DNA of 64,000 bases from Candidatus Obscuribacterales bacterium (GTDB lineage: Bacteria; Cyanobacteriota; Vampirovibrionia; Obscuribacterales; Obscuribacteraceae): the NCBI GenBank assembly GCA_965229195.1, contig OZ245871.1:2720420-2784419 (forward strand), given 5' to 3'. Below are positions 19,559 through 50,976 of this stretch, piece after piece; within the stretch, counting starts at the first letter, position 1, and each line of letters starts with the position of its first letter. The position numbers were made by a program, and so were the translations under genes. The notes beneath the pieces were generated by a model. The model had not been told where the DNA came from, did no database searches, and was given only the letters and a program-made list of their open reading frames with translations.

Positions 19559-19829
19559 GTTCTTGTCTCCTTCTGCGCCGCAGTCGCTCGTCTTGCCAAG
19601 ATTTCTGGCTCAGTATGGTACCGCATCTCTCGCTCTGGTTACCACCGTAGAGATGTCAGCAAAACTCCCGTGCCATGAAGACTTCGATTTTTGTCGTTGG
19701 CAAAGCTCATATGTAGGGATTAGGTCTGGTGATGACTTGAACCAATGATGCGGCACATTTTAGCTACTACTACGCTAGCTAGTAAGTGGTGCTAAAAATA
19801 GAGACTGATTGAGAAATTACTCCTCCGAA

Positions 19830-19864
19830 AGAGCAGAGAGATTTTGCCAGAATCTCTCTGCTCT
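19830..19864. other. 14-bp perfect-stem hairpin (AGAGCAGAGAGATT / AATCTCTCTGCTCT, 7-nt loop).
   Basis: Lies ~80 bp downstream of the last gene of the minus-strand operon. No clean U-tract on either strand. Candidate operon-end structure or protein-binding site. Confidence 0.4.
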
Positions 19865-19939
19865 TGTTGGGGTAAGTTTGAGTGCTACTGCGCTTTTCGC
19901 ACGGTCTTGGATGTGGCTTAAACCTGGACTATATCTGCC

Positions 19940-28770: not shown

Positions 28771-28906
28771 TTGGGATTCAGTGCTCTAAAATTTTTGGAT
28801 TTGGATACTACGCTGTGTAGTTTAAGATTTAGTCACTAAGCCGTAACAACTCGTTCCTATATTGAGAGCACAGAGAACCCCCCTCTCAACTCAGGTAGGA
28901 AGCGAA

Positions 28907-30046
28907 ATGTTAGATTCAAACCATTTACCAACTGATCGCACTGCTCCAGCTGCCCTTGGCGGTAACAGTGCTGGTGTGCAGCGTGAATTGCTAGAGCAAT
29001 ATAGAATTCCTGCTCGTAGCAATGGCGCTTGCTCGCTCAATGATGCTTGCTCGCCCTTTAAGCCCGACTATGAGCGCAGAACTGAGTCTGGTCGTGCCTG
29101 GGACAAAGAAGCAAAGAAACAGCAAGGTAGCGGATTTGAAGTTGGCCCTGATGGCAAATATGAAGTGAAGCCTGGCGATAGCCTCTGGGGCATAGCTGAG
29201 CGGGCCATCAAGAAAGAAGGCGGCAAGTCTTCGCCAGCTGAAGTGCAGAAGCGCGTCAAAGAGCTGGTCGAAGCTAACAAAGAAAACTTACCAGGGCTTG
29301 ATTGCAATCCTCATTTATTGAAGCGCGGTGGAAAACTGAATATTCCAGGGCGTACCAATCAGGAGCAGCCGTCAGAAAAACCAGCGGAAAATCCAACACC
29401 GGGTAACGCCGCTAAGCCGTCAGAAAAACCCGCAGAAAATCTAACACCGGGTAACGCCGCTAAGCCGTCAGAAAAACCAGCAGAAAATCTGACACCAGGT
29501 AACGCCGCAAAACCTTCTGACAGCAGCTCAGACAAACCCAGCGACAAACCTGGTGAGGCTGTCCGACCTGATGATGTCTGCAAGCCTGCTGATATCTACA
29601 AAGATATGGCTAAGTTTCCCGAGCTCAGCCCCAAGGAATATTTCACGGCTTGCCGCATCAGCAAGGCTGTCATCGACGGTGATGCCGAAGCATTGAAGAA
29701 AGCCATGAGTGATTTTCCCGCCAACAAAGAATCTGGTGAGCGAGTTGCCCGCGCTCTCAATGAGACCTTCAGAGATCAGGGAATAGTGGTGGACTATAAC
29801 CAATACAACTTCTATCGCGCCTCTACTCCTGATAAGCAAGAGACAGCTAGTTCTTTCCGCATCTACCATCGCGGAGCTGAGCGTTATTTAGAAGTTGGCA
29901 AAGACAATGTTGGTATGGGTGGACCGGTGCGCCAGGGGCCTGGTGGCTCTATCGACTATGGAACGGTAGCCTATCACGGCGAAAGTCAACGCAAAGCAAC
30001 CATTGATGATCTCGCAGCAGCAATGAGACGCCGTTATTGTCCGTAA
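28907..30046 (+). CDS. LysM-domain protein with three tandem 16-aa repeats (KPSEKPAENxTPGNAA).
   Basis: LysM-like segment YEVKPGDSLWGIAERAI. AGGAAG RBS. 3 x 48-bp DNA repeats at 29369-29512. Confidence 0.7.
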   Translation: MLDSNHLPTDRTAPAALGGNSAGVQRELLEQYRIPARSNGACSLNDACSPFKPDYERRTESGRAWDKEAKKQQGSGFEVGPDGKYEVKPGDSLWGIAERAIKKEGGKSSPAEVQKRVKELVEANKENLPGLDCNPHLLKRGGKLNIPGRTNQEQPSEKPAENPTPGNAAKPSEKPAENLTPGNAAKPSEKPAENLTPGNAAKPSDSSSDKPSDKPGEAVRPDDVCKPADIYKDMAKFPELSPKEYFTACRISKAVIDGDAEALKKAMSDFPANKESGERVARALNETFRDQGIVVDYNQYNFYRASTPDKQETASSFRIYHRGAERYLEVGKDNVGMGGPVRQGPGGSIDYGTVAYHGESQRKATIDDLAAAMRRRYCP

Positions 30047-30149
30047 AATTTTCGTCCTTCAGCGAGCGTGATAAATAGCCTCTGTGTTTTTGAAGCCAAT
30101 GCTATTTTCGCGTTTTCTGACAATTCTGTTTTTCTCGAGGGGGAGGAAG

Positions 30150-30345
30150 AGGTGTGGTTGCTAAATGCCAACCACACCTCTTCCGTGCATGTGACTGTAG
30201 GTGTGGTTGCTAAATGCTAACCACACCTCTTCCGTGTCTGTGTTTGTAGGTGTGGTTGCTAAATGCTAACCACACCTCTTCCGTGTCTGTGTTTGTAGGT
30301 GTGGTTGCTAAATGCCAACCACACCTCTTCCGTGCGTGTGTCTGT
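30150..30345. repeat. Tandem array of 4 x 49-bp units. Each unit contains a 10-bp perfect inverted repeat (AGGTGTGGTT-gctaaatgcY-AACCACACCT) followed by CTTCCGTGyntgtgwyTGT.
   Basis: Unit boundaries 30150, 30199, 30248, 30297. The units differ at only a few positions. Confidence 0.9.
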
Positions 30346-30395
30346 ATATCCGATCGACTTACCTTGGCTGCTCGGCAATTTTGCCTCAAAACGGC

Positions 30396-30437
30396 ATTTG
30401 GCTGCCTAGTGCTAGCTTCGCCAAGGGGCAGCCAAAT
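30396..30437. other. 11-bp perfect-stem hairpin (ATTTGGCTGCC…GGCAGCCAAAT) with a 20-nt loop containing a CTAGTGCTAG palindrome.
   Basis: Seen in the sequence, 50 nt after the tandem hairpin array in the same 860-bp intergenic region. Confidence 0.5.
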
Positions 30438-30906
30438 TAGAGATTTGCATGGGTAAGCAGCTACTCTTTCAATTATTAAGATGACCGCTCAGCCTCATGG
30501 GGTGAGCAATTGCTTGCCTGGGTTGACCTTTGACAACCTGGATGGTTAGCGCCAACTGCGTCGATTTAATAATCTAGCTTGGCAAGCTTAGAGAATACTA
30601 CTTTACATCAATCTGTAATATGCGCCTTGGCGGGCTGCTAATTCGTAGGTTTTGAGTTCCACAACTCTTCCCGTTCGCACCCAAGCAAAGCACTCGAAAA
30701 ACAAACCCAGCGCATTACTTTCGATTCCTTCACCTTCCCCACAATGGAAGCGTGTCTTATCGAACGTCTGTTGATGTGCTGCGGTTTTGATTTTTATGAG
30801 TGCTGAGCTGGTCAATTCTGGAAGAGACGGTATCTAACTGTGCAATCGCGTCTGTGCTGCGAACCATCGGCTCCGTTGCACCATCAATTTCACCAAAGGA
30901 CAATTC

Positions 30907-33094
30907 TATGGACACCATGCTGTCACTGCTTCCCTGGCTTCCGGCCCTTCTCGGTCTGGTCGCTCTCGGCTTTCTGGCCACACGTTTCATCGTCAACGTC
31001 GGCCCTACCGAAATCGCCATCACCGAACGCCGCTTCCTCGGCAAGAAACTGCCTTCCAACCGCGCTTTTGCCTTGTCGGGCGAAGTCGGTATCCAGGCGG
31101 CTTACCTCTCCCCCGGCCTGCACTTCATTTTCTGGCCGATCACCCGCGTCATCAAGAAGGCTCCCTTCGTGGTGATCGGCTCCGGCCAACTTGGCGTCAT
31201 CACTGCTGCCGACGGCGAGTCCATGCCCTCTGGTCGCGTCTACGCTGAAGATGCCGCTGGCGATGCCCATGGCTCCTTCCAGGACCCGGCGGGCTTCCTC
31301 ACCAACGGCGGTATCCGCGGTAAGCAGCTGCGCTTCCTCACCAACGGTACGTTCAAGATTCACCCCTTCCTCTTCAAGGTCGACCTGATCGACAAGACTG
31401 TCGTGCCTGAAGGCAGTATTGGTGTTGTCACCGCTGCTGACGGTGCATCGTTGATCGAAGGCCAGCTGCTTGGTCAGCGCGCCACCGGTCACGACAACTT
31501 CCAGAAGGGTGAAACCTTCCTCAAGAACGGCGGCCAGAAGGGTCCGCAGATCGACTTCCTGCGTCCTGGTACCTACAACATCTTCTCCGACATGTTCAAG
31601 GTCGAGATGAAGCCGGCCATTCAGGTCAAGGAAAACCAGATCGGTATCGTCGAAGCCAAGTCGGGTGACCCGATGGGCAAAGACGACGTCGTTGCCGCTA
31701 CCCCCGAGATGAGCCTGCACATGTCCTACCAGGACGGCCAGGCCTTCCTCAACGGCGGTGGTAAGCGCGGCCCTCAGGAAGAGGTGCTTCGCCCCGGTAC
31801 GTACTACGTCAACCCCTACCTGTTCTCTATCACCATGCAGCCGCAGACGGTGATCAAGCAGGGCGAAGTGGGCGTGATGATCTCCAACATCGGCAAGGAC
31901 CCGACCGAACTGTTCGGCGAAGAAGCTCCGACTGCGGCGCCTGCTACCAAGCTGCCGGCCGTCATCAAGGCTCCGGCTGCTGCTGGCGCCACTGACGTCT
32001 CGGTCGCCGACAGCTCGCCGCTGACCGCTGGCGCCACTGACCCCGAGGAGACCCGCCACAACACCGGCGTGCGCGCTCGTCACGTGGTGCCGAAGGGCTA
32101 CCGCGGCATCCAGAAGGAAGTGCTCAACCCGGGCAAGTACAACATCAACCCGCTGGCCTTCTCGGTCATCGTGGTGCCCACCACCACTCGTTCCATCGAG
32201 TGGTCCGAGAACGAAAGCGCCAAGGACTTCGACCCGTTTGCTGTCGTTTCGCGCGACGGCTTCACCATGCAGGTTGAAGTGCGCTGCCAGTACCGCATCC
32301 TGCCCGAGAACGCGCCGTACGTGGTGCAGAAGCTGGGTTCGGTGGAAGAGCTGGAGAAGAACGTTCTGCATCCGCAGATCGACGGTATCTTCCGTGCCCA
32401 GGTCTCTCGTTCGCCGGCCATCAACTATCAGCAGGAGCGTGCCACCGAGCAGCTCGACGCTGAGAACGCCGTGAAGAGCGACCTGGTCAAGTACAAGGTC
32501 GAAGTGGTGTCGGTGATGATCTGCAACATCAAGCTCCCGCAGGAGCTGATGCACACCACCCAGGAGCGCAACCTGGCCGAACAGCGCGAGACGATGTACG
32601 ACGCCCAGGAAAAGGCGGAGAAGCGTCGTATCGAGTTCCAGGCCACCAAGTCGCAGGCTGACCAGCAGGACACCATCATCAAGGCCAAGGCTGGTATCGA
32701 GGTGGCCAAGCACGAGGCGGCTCAGATGGAAGAGCGCGCCAAGGGTAAGGCTGCTCAGACCCGCATCGAAGCGGAAGCTGATGCGGGCCGCGTCAAGACC
32801 GTCGGTGATGCCGAAGCCGGTGTCATCAAGGCCAAGGGTGAAGCGACCGCTGAAGCCTACTCCAAGCAGGTGGAAGCGCTGACCGCTCAGGGCGTTACCT
32901 CCATCGAGGTGACCAAGCTGCTCACCGCTTCTGGTCAGGCTCTGGTGCCGCAGGTTGTTGCCGGTGGCGACAACGGCGGTGGCAATGGTCTGGTCAATCT
33001 TCTGCTCGCCGACACGCTCATTCGCAACCGCGAAGAGAACGCTGCCGCGCGTGACCTGAAGAAGCCGGCCGCTGACACGACCGACAAGAAGTAA
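30907..33094 (+). CDS. SPFH/band-7 (flotillin-like) membrane protein with three internal ~70-aa N-terminal repeats and an Ala/Glu/Lys-rich coiled-coil C-terminus.
   Basis: N-terminal TM helix. Repeated FLxNGGxxGxQxxxLRPGTY motifs. SPFH-like core followed by an EA-rich coiled coil (…AEQRETMYDAQEKAEKRRIEFQATKSQADQQ…). AAAGGA RBS. Two tandem terminators follow. Confidence 0.75.
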
Positions 33095-33168
33095 GCTCCA
33101 CTTCTTTTTTCGGACTGGGGGTGGCGTCGACTGACTTGAAAAAGTTAGTTGGCGCCACCGCCTTTTTT
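33089..33168 (+). terminator. Two tandem rho-independent terminators. The first is GAAGT-aagctcc-ACTTC + TTTTTT at the stop codon. The second is GGGGTGGCG…CGCCACCGCC + TTTTTT.
   Basis: Both are stem-loops immediately followed by T6 runs. Confidence 0.75.
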
Positions 33169-44586: not shown

Positions 44587-44820
44587 ATCTGTTTATGGAC
44601 ACCCCGAGCAGCGACAAAAGTATAACCGTTTCACAGTGCTGTCACAATTGCTGCTTAGGATGCAAATACGGAAGTTCGGAAACCAAGCACAAACTTCTAG
44701 CACAAAAACGCTAAGCACAAAAACACCAAGAAGGCGACCTTTGTTGCCGGTCGAAAGACTATAGGTGTTTGAGTTTTACTATCTTCGGCTTTGCCGATAT
44801 TTTCTATATTTGGAGGTTCT

Positions 44821-45837
44821 ATGAGCGATCATTTACGACCGTCGTTTCAGGCTGAGAATTTTCGCGGAAATGACTCAAGCCCCATGCGTGATGCGGCTTG
44901 CCAGGCATATTCTCCTGAGAATCAAGCAGTTTTTCGTATCGATATTCGCTCGACGCAAGGTACAGAGTCGCTTCCTAGTTTGCAAATAGTATTTGAACAA
45001 GACGGCAATAATTCGCGCAATTTTTCTGGACGCGATAGTGGTGCGGGCTCACGAGGTCAGTTTGATGACAGTCGCAGAGATTTTTCGCCGCTTGATCGCA
45101 GCTCAAATTCTGATCGCTTTTCGCACTCGGGTGAATCCTCTCAATCAGACCAATTTTCACGCAATCCCTGGCACCACGGTCATGAGCATCACTCCCATGG
45201 CCATCACCGTTTGAATGATTCTTCTTCGTCTAATGGTCCGCAATTTTTAGGTAATGATCGTACGGGTACGTCTGATTTTGGTCAGTCCTCGCCCTTTGAT
45301 CGCCGCTCAGGCAACGACAATTCTTTTGTAAGTACCGACTCACCGCCCTGGGAAAACCAAAGTGATTTCAGTCGGGGCTACGGGAGTGGCGACCGAGGCG
45401 GGTACAGAGATAACTCTCGCTATGCCTCTCCGCTCGAATTACTAAATCAATTAGCTGAATATTTCCGCCAGAATGAGCTGTCTAATTCGCTTGACGGCAA
45501 TGGCTTTACCTCTGGTCCTGGTTCGCAGTTTCGCTTAGTTGATAGTACTTATCGACCGCCGACTGAATTGCCGACTCTTTCTGGTCTGCCTAAGCCAGGT
45601 GACCTCTTGAATGGCTTACCAACCCCTCCAGGCTTGCCAAAGCCAGGCGACCTCTTGAGTGGCCTGCCAACCCCTCCAGGCTTGCCTAACCCAGGTGACC
45701 TCTTGAGCGCCTTGCCGGCCCCTCCAGGCTTGCCTAACCCAGGTGACCTCTTGAGCGCCTTGCCGACCCCTCCTGGTCTACCTTCGCCTAAGAATATCTT
45801 TGATAAGTTGCCAAATCCGTTCAAGCTGTTCGGTTAG
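44821..45837 (+). CDS. Low-complexity Ser/Asp/Asn/Gly-rich protein with five C-terminal 16-aa repeats (GLPxPGDLLxxLPTPP).
   Basis: GGAGG RBS upstream of MSDHLRP. 48-bp DNA repeats at ~45584-45795. Confidence 0.55.
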   Translation: MSDHLRPSFQAENFRGNDSSPMRDAACQAYSPENQAVFRIDIRSTQGTESLPSLQIVFEQDGNNSRNFSGRDSGAGSRGQFDDSRRDFSPLDRSSNSDRFSHSGESSQSDQFSRNPWHHGHEHHSHGHHRLNDSSSSNGPQFLGNDRTGTSDFGQSSPFDRRSGNDNSFVSTDSPPWENQSDFSRGYGSGDRGGYRDNSRYASPLELLNQLAEYFRQNELSNSLDGNGFTSGPGSQFRLVDSTYRPPTELPTLSGLPKPGDLLNGLPTPPGLPKPGDLLSGLPTPPGLPNPGDLLSALPAPPGLPNPGDLLSALPTPPGLPSPKNIFDKLPNPFKLFG

Positions 45838-50807: not shown

Positions 50808-50976
50808 GACTTCACGCCTAACGCTTAAGAGCTAACACCTCTGCTCTAAAGGGCTGCTCGGATAGTTTTCCGGGCAGCCCACTTGGGCTTCTTGAAAAAA
50901 AAGCCACTTTAATACTATAGAGTGTAATTGAAAAATTTGGAATTTCAGTGACAGAAGAAGCTTATCGCCAGCTGAT

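Follow-up and report, generated by a model that had tools for sequence, protein, structure and literature searches.

Lineage-variable tandem amplification of a conserved hairpin downstream of a LysM-like gene in Obscuribacterales

Results

Organization of the locus

The window analysed here, 64,000 nt (64 kb) of the genome of a Candidatus Obscuribacterales bacterium, contains two co-oriented genes separated by an intergenic region of 861 nt (Table 1). The upstream gene encodes a LysM-like protein, and its full-length orthologues, with 51-57% identity, start at the same methionine. It contains an in-frame 48-bp tandem repeat at 29367-29508, equivalent to 16 amino acids (KPSEKPAENLTPGNAA). The copy number of this repeat differs between orthologues, with 3.0 copies in the window, 4.9 in L024 (716-950), 3.8 in L016 (4567-4747) and 2.9 in L025 (1710-1848). 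Elsewhere in the window, another 48-bp repeat with 3.9 copies (45587-45773) lies inside the ORF 44791-45837, and is probably a coding repeat as well.

The downstream gene, called a flotillin gene in the initial annotation of the locus, indeed encodes an SPFH/Band_7 protein of the YqiK/flotillin-like type. The protein has 1323 homologues, some of them with 83-95% identity. The SPFH gene is followed, 26 nt after its stop codon, by a textbook intrinsic terminator, and the genome thus does use terminators with a U tract.

Table 1. Features of the LysM-like/SPFH locus (positions in the window)
Feature	Position	Strand	Remarks
LysM-like gene	28907-30046	+	379 aa from Met16 of a 394-aa ORF; Pfam LysM 22.7 bits
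Conserved 3′-UTR block TGCTATTTTCGCGTTTTCTGACAATTCTGTTTTTCTCGAGGGGGAGGAAG	30100-30149	+	ends in GGAAG, the 5′ base of the first stem
Hairpin 1	30145-30184	+	perfect 16-bp stem, 8-nt loop, dG -29.6 kcal/mol; covariance model match 81 bits
Array unit 1	30150-30198	+	hairpin core, then CTTCC-GTGCATGTGACTGT tail
Array unit 2	30199-30247	+	stem 30199-30228; dG -18.0 kcal/mol
Array unit 3	30248-30296	+	stem 30248-30277
Array unit 4	30297-30345	+	stem 30297-30326; aligns with the single unit of relatives
Second hairpin	30396-30437	+	exact 11-bp stem 30396-30406/30427-30437; conserved loop CTAGTGCTAGCTTCGCC; part of the SPFH-upstream module
Conserved non-coding island	30561-30700	+	TTAATAATCT..CTTGGCAAGCTTAGAGAATACTACTTTACATC..TTCGTAGGTTTTGAGTTCC..GTTCGCA..CAAGCAAA; upstream of SPFH
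SPFH/Band_7 gene (YqiK/flotillin-like)	30908-33094	+	728 aa; Pfam Band_7 3.8e-22; AAAGGA ribosome-binding site 30895-30900
SPFH terminator	33120-33159		canonical intrinsic terminator, 18-bp stem then GCCTTTTTT

The tandem array

Tandem Repeats Finder reports a repeat of period 49 at 30150-30346 (4.0 copies, 93% matches, score 331), and the four unit starts are those of Table 1. The initial annotation had described four near-identical 49-bp hairpin units, each with a perfect 10-bp inverted repeat and with about four variable positions, and had excluded a CRISPR. The array, the near-identity of the units and the perfect stems, which have 10-11 bp, are all confirmed; the count of variable positions has to be corrected to five, with units 2 and 3 identical. 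A CRISPR would contain unique spacers, and the exclusion is correct, because the units are contiguous and their start-to-start spacing of 49 equals the unit length. Head-to-tail copies of a 10-100-bp unit between genes are what is expected of an intergenic VNTR.

Every unit consists of AGGTGTGGTT(G)...(C)AACCACACCT, followed by CTTCCGTG and a GT-rich tail. Units 1 and 4 form an 11-bp stem with an 8-nt loop. A C-to-T exchange in the loop of units 2 and 3 leaves 10 Watson-Crick pairs, or 11 if a G·U pair is counted. In unit 1, the stem is lengthened by the upstream GGAAG to a perfect 16 bp, and the computed folding energy is -29.6 kcal/mol for this unit, against -18.0 kcal/mol for units 2-4. Folded as RNA, the region 30120-30360 has a z-score of -9.4 relative to shuffled sequences. 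The 30-nt hairpin core has four matches in the 64-kb window, which are the array units only, and none are expected from 100 shuffles.

Coding potential does not account for the region. A 64-aa ORF has been called here in L016, and the frame is open past the stop codon in several lineages. However, the frame is interrupted by stops in L013 and L019, and is shifted by an insertion of 1 nt in L031 and by an indel of 2 nt in L019, so that a small ORF, a leader peptide and read-through of the stop codon were all rejected as readings across the hairpin. In L035, the A/GTG of the stem is not a start codon, and the unit length of 49 bp is not divisible by 3.

Copy number in related lineages

Orthologous loci were gathered by protein look-up, and by a scan of a metagenome collection with an invariant 20-mer from just upstream of the array. 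Exactly one hairpin is present at the position of the array in eight lineages (L006/25/30, L024, L016-18, L013-15/28, L019-21/26, L031, L035/36 and L032), most of which have been assembled independently several times. Five of them (L006/25/30, L024, L016-18, L013-15/28 and L019-21/26) align with the window block for block over the whole intergenic region, and in L031 the alignment begins at the conserved block that immediately precedes the hairpin, and continues from there. The intergenic region measures 710-715 nt in the nearest relatives, and the difference to the 861 nt of the window corresponds to three units. Hairpin 1 is the counterpart of the single hairpin of the relatives.

One further lineage, L037/L038, has at least three units. 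L037 contains three units in the same phase as the window (2.8 copies according to Tandem Repeats Finder), with the contig end 17 nt upstream of the array, and the L038 contig begins inside the array, with at least two units at the contig end. Both are JGI contigs that terminate at or inside the 49-bp array (L037, 1-164; L038, 1-100). As short-read assemblies break in the array, the copy numbers of L037 and L038 are minimum values. In general, copy numbers from short reads could be underestimates; however, contigs break where there is an array, and the single-copy loci are spanned cleanly. Taken together, the copy number is one, at least three, or four, depending on the lineage, as is typical of an intergenic VNTR. 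With eight single-hairpin lineages and one lineage with at least three units, the array in the window is a lineage-variable tandem amplification of a conserved hairpin, and the single copy is the ancestral state.

The duplicated segment extends from the A after GGAAG to ...CTGT, with a junction homology of about 1 nt. In the sub-clade of the window, the stem has become a perfect palindrome. Units 1 and 2 of L037 differ by one base from unit 4 of the window, and the last unit of L037 resembles the single unit of L016. These similarities suggest that arrays have expanded and contracted repeatedly, and that there has been some exchange between the lineages. In L024 (1592-1621, compared with 30150-30179 of the window, and with the window and L006 as reference), the loop and the top of the stem are inverted, from GCTAAATGCC to GGCATTTAGC, with one additional substitution. 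The inversion indicates that the palindrome is active at the DNA level. The suspicion voiced in the initial annotation, that this could be a recombination hotspot with variation in array length, has thus been borne out by the copy numbers, by the contig breaks in the array and by the loop inversion in L024.

Covariation and strand

For a covariation test, as proposed in the initial annotation, the homologous loci of nine lineages were aligned over an 18-pair helix. The support is strong. In the alignment, 94.4% of the cells are paired and 10 of the 18 pairs have changed on both sides, and none of 500 shuffles reaches these values. When the 3′ partner is displaced by 1-3 columns as a control, pairing drops to 43-66%. 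The distal stem half of L035 and L032 has an entirely different sequence, and is still fully paired. Orthologous genes thus show compensatory change in their 3′ UTRs, as would characterize a stabilizing stem-loop at an mRNA 3′ end. The loop sequences are not conserved across lineages, and the base of the stem, AAGAGGTGT/ACACCTCTT, is conserved in sequence.

The deviations from Watson-Crick pairing are informative about the strand. The + strand has 18 G·U cells, compared to 3 A·C cells, which would be G·U on the - strand. This asymmetry points to a hairpin that acts as RNA of the + strand, which is the sense of both flanking genes. The + strand RNA is more stable than the - strand RNA by 6-13 kcal/mol in six of the nine lineages, and the hairpins of the other three are perfect palindromes. 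RNAalifold calculates -34.4 for the + strand and -23.9 for the - strand.

Two modules in the intergenic region

The genome of L032 provides a natural separation of the two genes. Its LysM-like orthologue (51% identity, full length) and its SPFH gene lie about 3.5 kb apart, with three genes on the opposite strand between them. The hairpin, with its GTTTTTCTC..GGGGG flank, is found about 30 nt past the stop codon of the LysM-like gene, and is thus linked to this upstream gene. The remaining conserved intergenic blocks sit directly upstream of SPFH. They comprise the GCTAGC/ATTAGAG motif of the second hairpin, GCTTGGC..CTTTACATC, and TGTAGGTTT..GTTCGCAACCAAGCAA. As the split leaves the hairpin at the LysM-like gene and the other blocks at SPFH, the intergenic region consists of two independent modules. 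One is a 3′ element that belongs to the LysM-like gene, and the other is the upstream region and leader of SPFH.

The distance between the hairpin and the LysM-like stop codon varies from 25 to 98 nt across lineages, with 98 nt in the window. The block in front of the hairpin (30100-30149) is 96-100% identical to L013, L016 and L024, and 78-86% identical to L019 and L031. For comparison, identity at the four-fold sites of the neighbouring gene is 72-82%, and 77-81% in the relatives with the 96-100% identical block. The core GTTTTTCYC..GGGGG of the block is kept even in L032 and L035. The conservation of block and stem base exceeds the neutral expectation and is not needed for a plain terminator, which hints at an extra function.

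The SPFH upstream region

The second hairpin, noted in the initial annotation as a separate structure with an 11-bp stem, has exactly this stem. Its loop contains CTAGTGCTAGC. The helix is kept with other sequences in relatives, namely TTGCTAC/GTAGCAA in L013 and CCCGTGG/CTTGCGGG in L031, and the motif ..ATTAGAG.TTT on the 3′ side of the loop remains upstream of SPFH in L032.

The adjacent island (30561-30700) is 84-96% identical between lineages, against 72-82% at four-fold sites, and is retained in L032 and L035, and in relatives with 83-85% protein identity. It contains 1-nt indels and is therefore non-coding. We detected no Rfam match in the island, and no convincing covariation on either strand. 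The island is probably a promoter or operator together with the start of the leader or 5′ UTR. It contains the near-palindrome AGCTTGGCAAGCT and the invariant CTTTACATC.

The initial annotation had also pointed to a TTGACA…TAATAAT-like element. Both motifs are present (30530-30535 and 30567-30573). The reading as a sigma-70 promoter was rejected, because the two motifs are 31 nt apart, L019, L026 and L031 do not conserve the TTGACA, and a scan for sigma-70-type promoters reported no promoter-like site on either strand in 30000-30900.

A consensus structure of the whole leader on the + strand was also rejected, since it is weakly supported, with a covariation term of -1.15. An RNA of the minus strand was considered as well, as the alifold energy of the leader is lower on this strand; with a positive covariation term and only 4 compensated pairs, this reading was rejected too. 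We attribute the energy advantage to the G/U richness of the leader. An N-terminal extension of SPFH from GTG 30800 is ruled out by a 1-nt indel in L019, L026 and L031. The GGAAGAG/CTCTTCC pair at the base of hairpin 1 (30145-30151 with 30178-30184) recurs in the SPFH leader in the opposite order. There, a long-range pair of 30665-30671 with 30820-30826 is predicted, and compensatory versions of it are found in L032 and L035.

Discussion

A terminator-like stem-loop that has been multiplied

In our judgement, it is moderately probable that the first module is a 3′-UTR stem-loop that forms or stabilizes an mRNA 3′ end, and that has been multiplied by slippage or unequal recombination. The module (approximately 30100-30345) would be the 3′ untranslated end of the LysM-like gene, with a conserved U-rich/G-rich block followed by a strong stem-loop in the direction of + strand transcription. 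Most likely, the stem-loop would form or protect the 3′ end of the LysM-like mRNA, either as a terminator without a U tract or as a barrier to 3′ exonucleases, and it would insulate the downstream SPFH promoter region. The second module (approximately 30390-30907) would be the conserved upstream region and leader of the SPFH gene itself.

According to the same reading, a 49-bp segment, made up of the 11-bp stem core, CTTCC and the GT-rich tail, would have been duplicated head-to-tail with about 1 nt of homology at the junction. Replication slippage or unequal recombination would subsequently have raised the copy number to four. The mRNA would then carry four successive hairpins where that of the relatives carries one. 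The amplification is probably neutral, and at most may strengthen termination or stabilization. The array, the ancestral single copy, the variation in copy number, the covariation and strand of the RNA, and the link to the upstream gene are shown by the data, and from these we infer the 3′-end function and the slippage mechanism. As to the mechanism, it is relevant that the adjacent coding 48-bp repeat also varies, with 2.9-4.9 copies, which argues for slippage or unequal recombination at an unstable locus.

The resemblance to an intrinsic terminator is partial. A G+C-rich stem-loop follows soon after the stop codon on the sense strand (16 bp, -29.6 kcal/mol, 98 nt, + strand). However, the tails of the hairpins, GTGCATGT and CTTCCGTG, contain only 3 T in 8 positions, the terminator scan reports no terminator at the array, and the relatives are alike in this respect. 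As a U tract follows the hairpin in none of the lineages, it is not a canonical intrinsic terminator, and in view of the textbook SPFH terminator 3 kb away, canonical intrinsic termination is not established for the array. The initial annotation had called the array "not a simple terminator". This cannot be upheld for the ancestral single unit, which is a terminator-like 3′ hairpin of the upstream gene, though one without a U tract. Strong 3′ hairpins without a U tract are also seen at other gene 3′ ends in the window, at 19829-19865 (17-bp stem) and at 50851-50880 (12-bp stem).

A possible functional RNA

The conserved block and the hairpin could themselves be a functional RNA, either a small RNA derived from the 3′ UTR, or a cis-regulator of the SPFH leader, so that the array would multiply functional units. 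We regard this as unlikely. It would explain why the block is 96-100% identical when four-fold sites are about 78-80% identical, and why the stem base is conserved even in orthologues with 51-57% protein identity. The recurrence of GGAAGAG/CTCTTCC in the SPFH leader (30665-30671 and 30820-30826), with two compensatory sequences, also fits, and a possible route of action in cis is pairing of the CCUCUUCC arms with the conserved GGAAGAG at 30820-30826. However, in L032 the hairpin and the SPFH leader are both conserved, despite their separation by 3.5 kb and by opposite-strand genes, and thus they need not act together in cis. Moreover, the loop sequences, as already mentioned, are not conserved, and a promoter-like site, a U tail and an Rfam family are all lacking. 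In the 64 kb, nothing reaches an Rfam gathering score, and in the intergenic region only chance-level matches are obtained at E≤10.

A bolder version of this idea, to which we give still less credence, is that the module of about 100 nt represents an undescribed functional RNA of the Obscuribacterales, a 3′-UTR-derived sRNA or a decoy for a protein or the ribosome, with a dose tuned by expansion and contraction of the hairpin array. The arms of the covarying hairpin, which lacks a U tract, could then mimic a pair of Shine-Dalgarno (GGAGGAAGAGGUG) and anti-Shine-Dalgarno (CACCUCUUCC) sequences.

Alternative readings as DNA-level or dispersed elements

It appears highly doubtful that the array is an element at the DNA level, made of palindromic protein-binding, operator or recombination sites that act as duplex or cruciform. 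The perfect 16-bp and 11-bp palindromes of the window, the sequence conservation of the stem base, and the hairpin activity in DNA that is evident from the L024 loop inversion and the tandem amplification all agree with such an element. But it is the pairing that is kept here, and not the sequence, as the distal stem has been wholly replaced with compensation in L035 and L032. The G·U asymmetry of 18 to 3, which leaves the - strand and the duplex symmetry imperfect in six of the nine lineages, points to RNA instead. In addition, most lineages have only one site per genome, and the scan of six neighbouring ORFs detected no recombinase or transposase family. The multi-site protein-binding scaffold suggested in the initial annotation therefore does not agree with the comparative data.

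The initial annotation had also considered a REP-like element. Membership of a dispersed REP/BIME- or MIRU-like family, with the array as one of many loci, is very improbable. The unit is an imperfect palindrome of REP-like size, located between co-oriented genes, and its tandem copies vary as those of MIRU-VNTRs do (PMC3635867). However, an interspersed repeat should have many dispersed copies, and there is no further copy in the 64-kb window. A covariance model (R1), searched with E<0.01 against 211 kb comprising the window and related loci, has no match outside the array units and the orthologous site. From 185,579 species genomes, a scan returned the orthologue L006 and 11 unrelated single hairpins, which are chance matches. 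A mobile, phage or plasmid origin was likewise rejected: the hairpins returned by the viral scan are unrelated, as is the sequence around them, and most are copies of one recurring site, and the plasmid search gave no match.

The tandem small-RNA array that had been suggested at the outset can practically be set aside, at least as an NsiR1-like series of independently transcribed sRNA genes. In its favour are the phylum (Cyanobacteriota), the tandem direct repeats upstream of a gene and a weak Rfam match to cyano_het_sRNA. However, this match (RF02596) scores 17.5 bits against a gathering score of 35.7, has E=1.3 and is found on the - strand, whereas the G·U pairs indicate the + strand. A unit of 49 bp is too short for an sRNA together with its promoter, the scans for sigma-70-type promoters and for terminators report none in the units, and the relatives mostly have one copy.

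Comparison with known systems

Stem-loops at RNA 3′ ends are familiar as intrinsic terminators, as the intercistronic REP stabilizers of E. coli malE-malF, and as the 3′ inverted repeats of chloroplast transcripts. The hairpin described here resembles terminating or protecting 3′-UTR stem-loops in being stable, G+C-rich and on the sense strand, in its location 25-98 nt past the stop codon, in its compensatory changes, and in staying with the upstream gene. Unlike canonical intrinsic terminators, it has no U tract, it has an unusually conserved flank and stem base, and it is present in four tandem copies.

As a repeat, the array is most easily compared to the MIRU-VNTRs of Mycobacterium tuberculosis (PMC3635867). 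These also have units of about 50 bp that are arranged head-to-tail between co-oriented genes, differ in copy number between related lineages and cause trouble in short-read assembly. However, MIRUs form an interspersed family that occupies dozens of loci, and no strong hairpin underlies them. In contrast, the array unit occurs, as far as tested, at one orthologous locus, and is a duplicated, covarying RNA stem-loop. The array shares with NsiR1 (RF02596; PMC6596454) a hairpin-bearing tandem direct repeat upstream of a gene and an origin in Cyanobacteriota in the broad sense. The NsiR1 repeats of heterocystous cyanobacteria are transcribed as sRNA from the array, and are conserved as arrays (PMC6596454), whereas the units in the window are 49 bp long and without promoters, reach half of the Rfam threshold on the other strand, and derive from an ancestral single copy. 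Hairpin-associated small inversions in non-coding chloroplast DNA (Kelchner & Wendel 1996, as cited in PMC5492656) are similar to the flip of the L024 loop, which differs from them in affecting a bacterial 3′-UTR hairpin, and which bears on the instability of the hairpin rather than on the array as such.

With respect to its class, the array is an ordinary intergenic VNTR built from a terminator-like stem-loop, and does not represent a new class of element. It is nevertheless of interest as a natural example of how a minisatellite arises from a functional RNA hairpin. Among uncultured lineages that are closely related, a perfect 3′-UTR palindrome has had its loop inverted, has been duplicated in tandem and has changed in copy number. 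In practice, the array may serve as a strain-typing marker for Obscuribacterales populations, and flags a break point of short-read assemblies. The analysis also illustrates that G·U asymmetry, combined with a natural split of a gene pair, can reveal the strand and the ownership of an intergenic structure without transcript data.

Instability of the locus

The locus as a whole is prone to tandem-repeat change of about 48-49 bp, as seen in the array and in the coding repeat of the LysM-like gene. The identity matrix of the SPFH genes is mosaic, so that sister relationships are not resolved by it, and a lineage tree of the SPFH gene could not be used to date the array. Similarity to the relatives changes along the locus (28862-33094, compared with L013, L025 and L037). 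The SPFH gene of the window is closest to L013 (92.6% nucleotide identity), the LysM-like gene with its 3′ UTR is closest to L006/L025 (95.6-100%), and the leader is closest to L024 and L037. This pattern suggests recombination between Obscuribacterales lineages.
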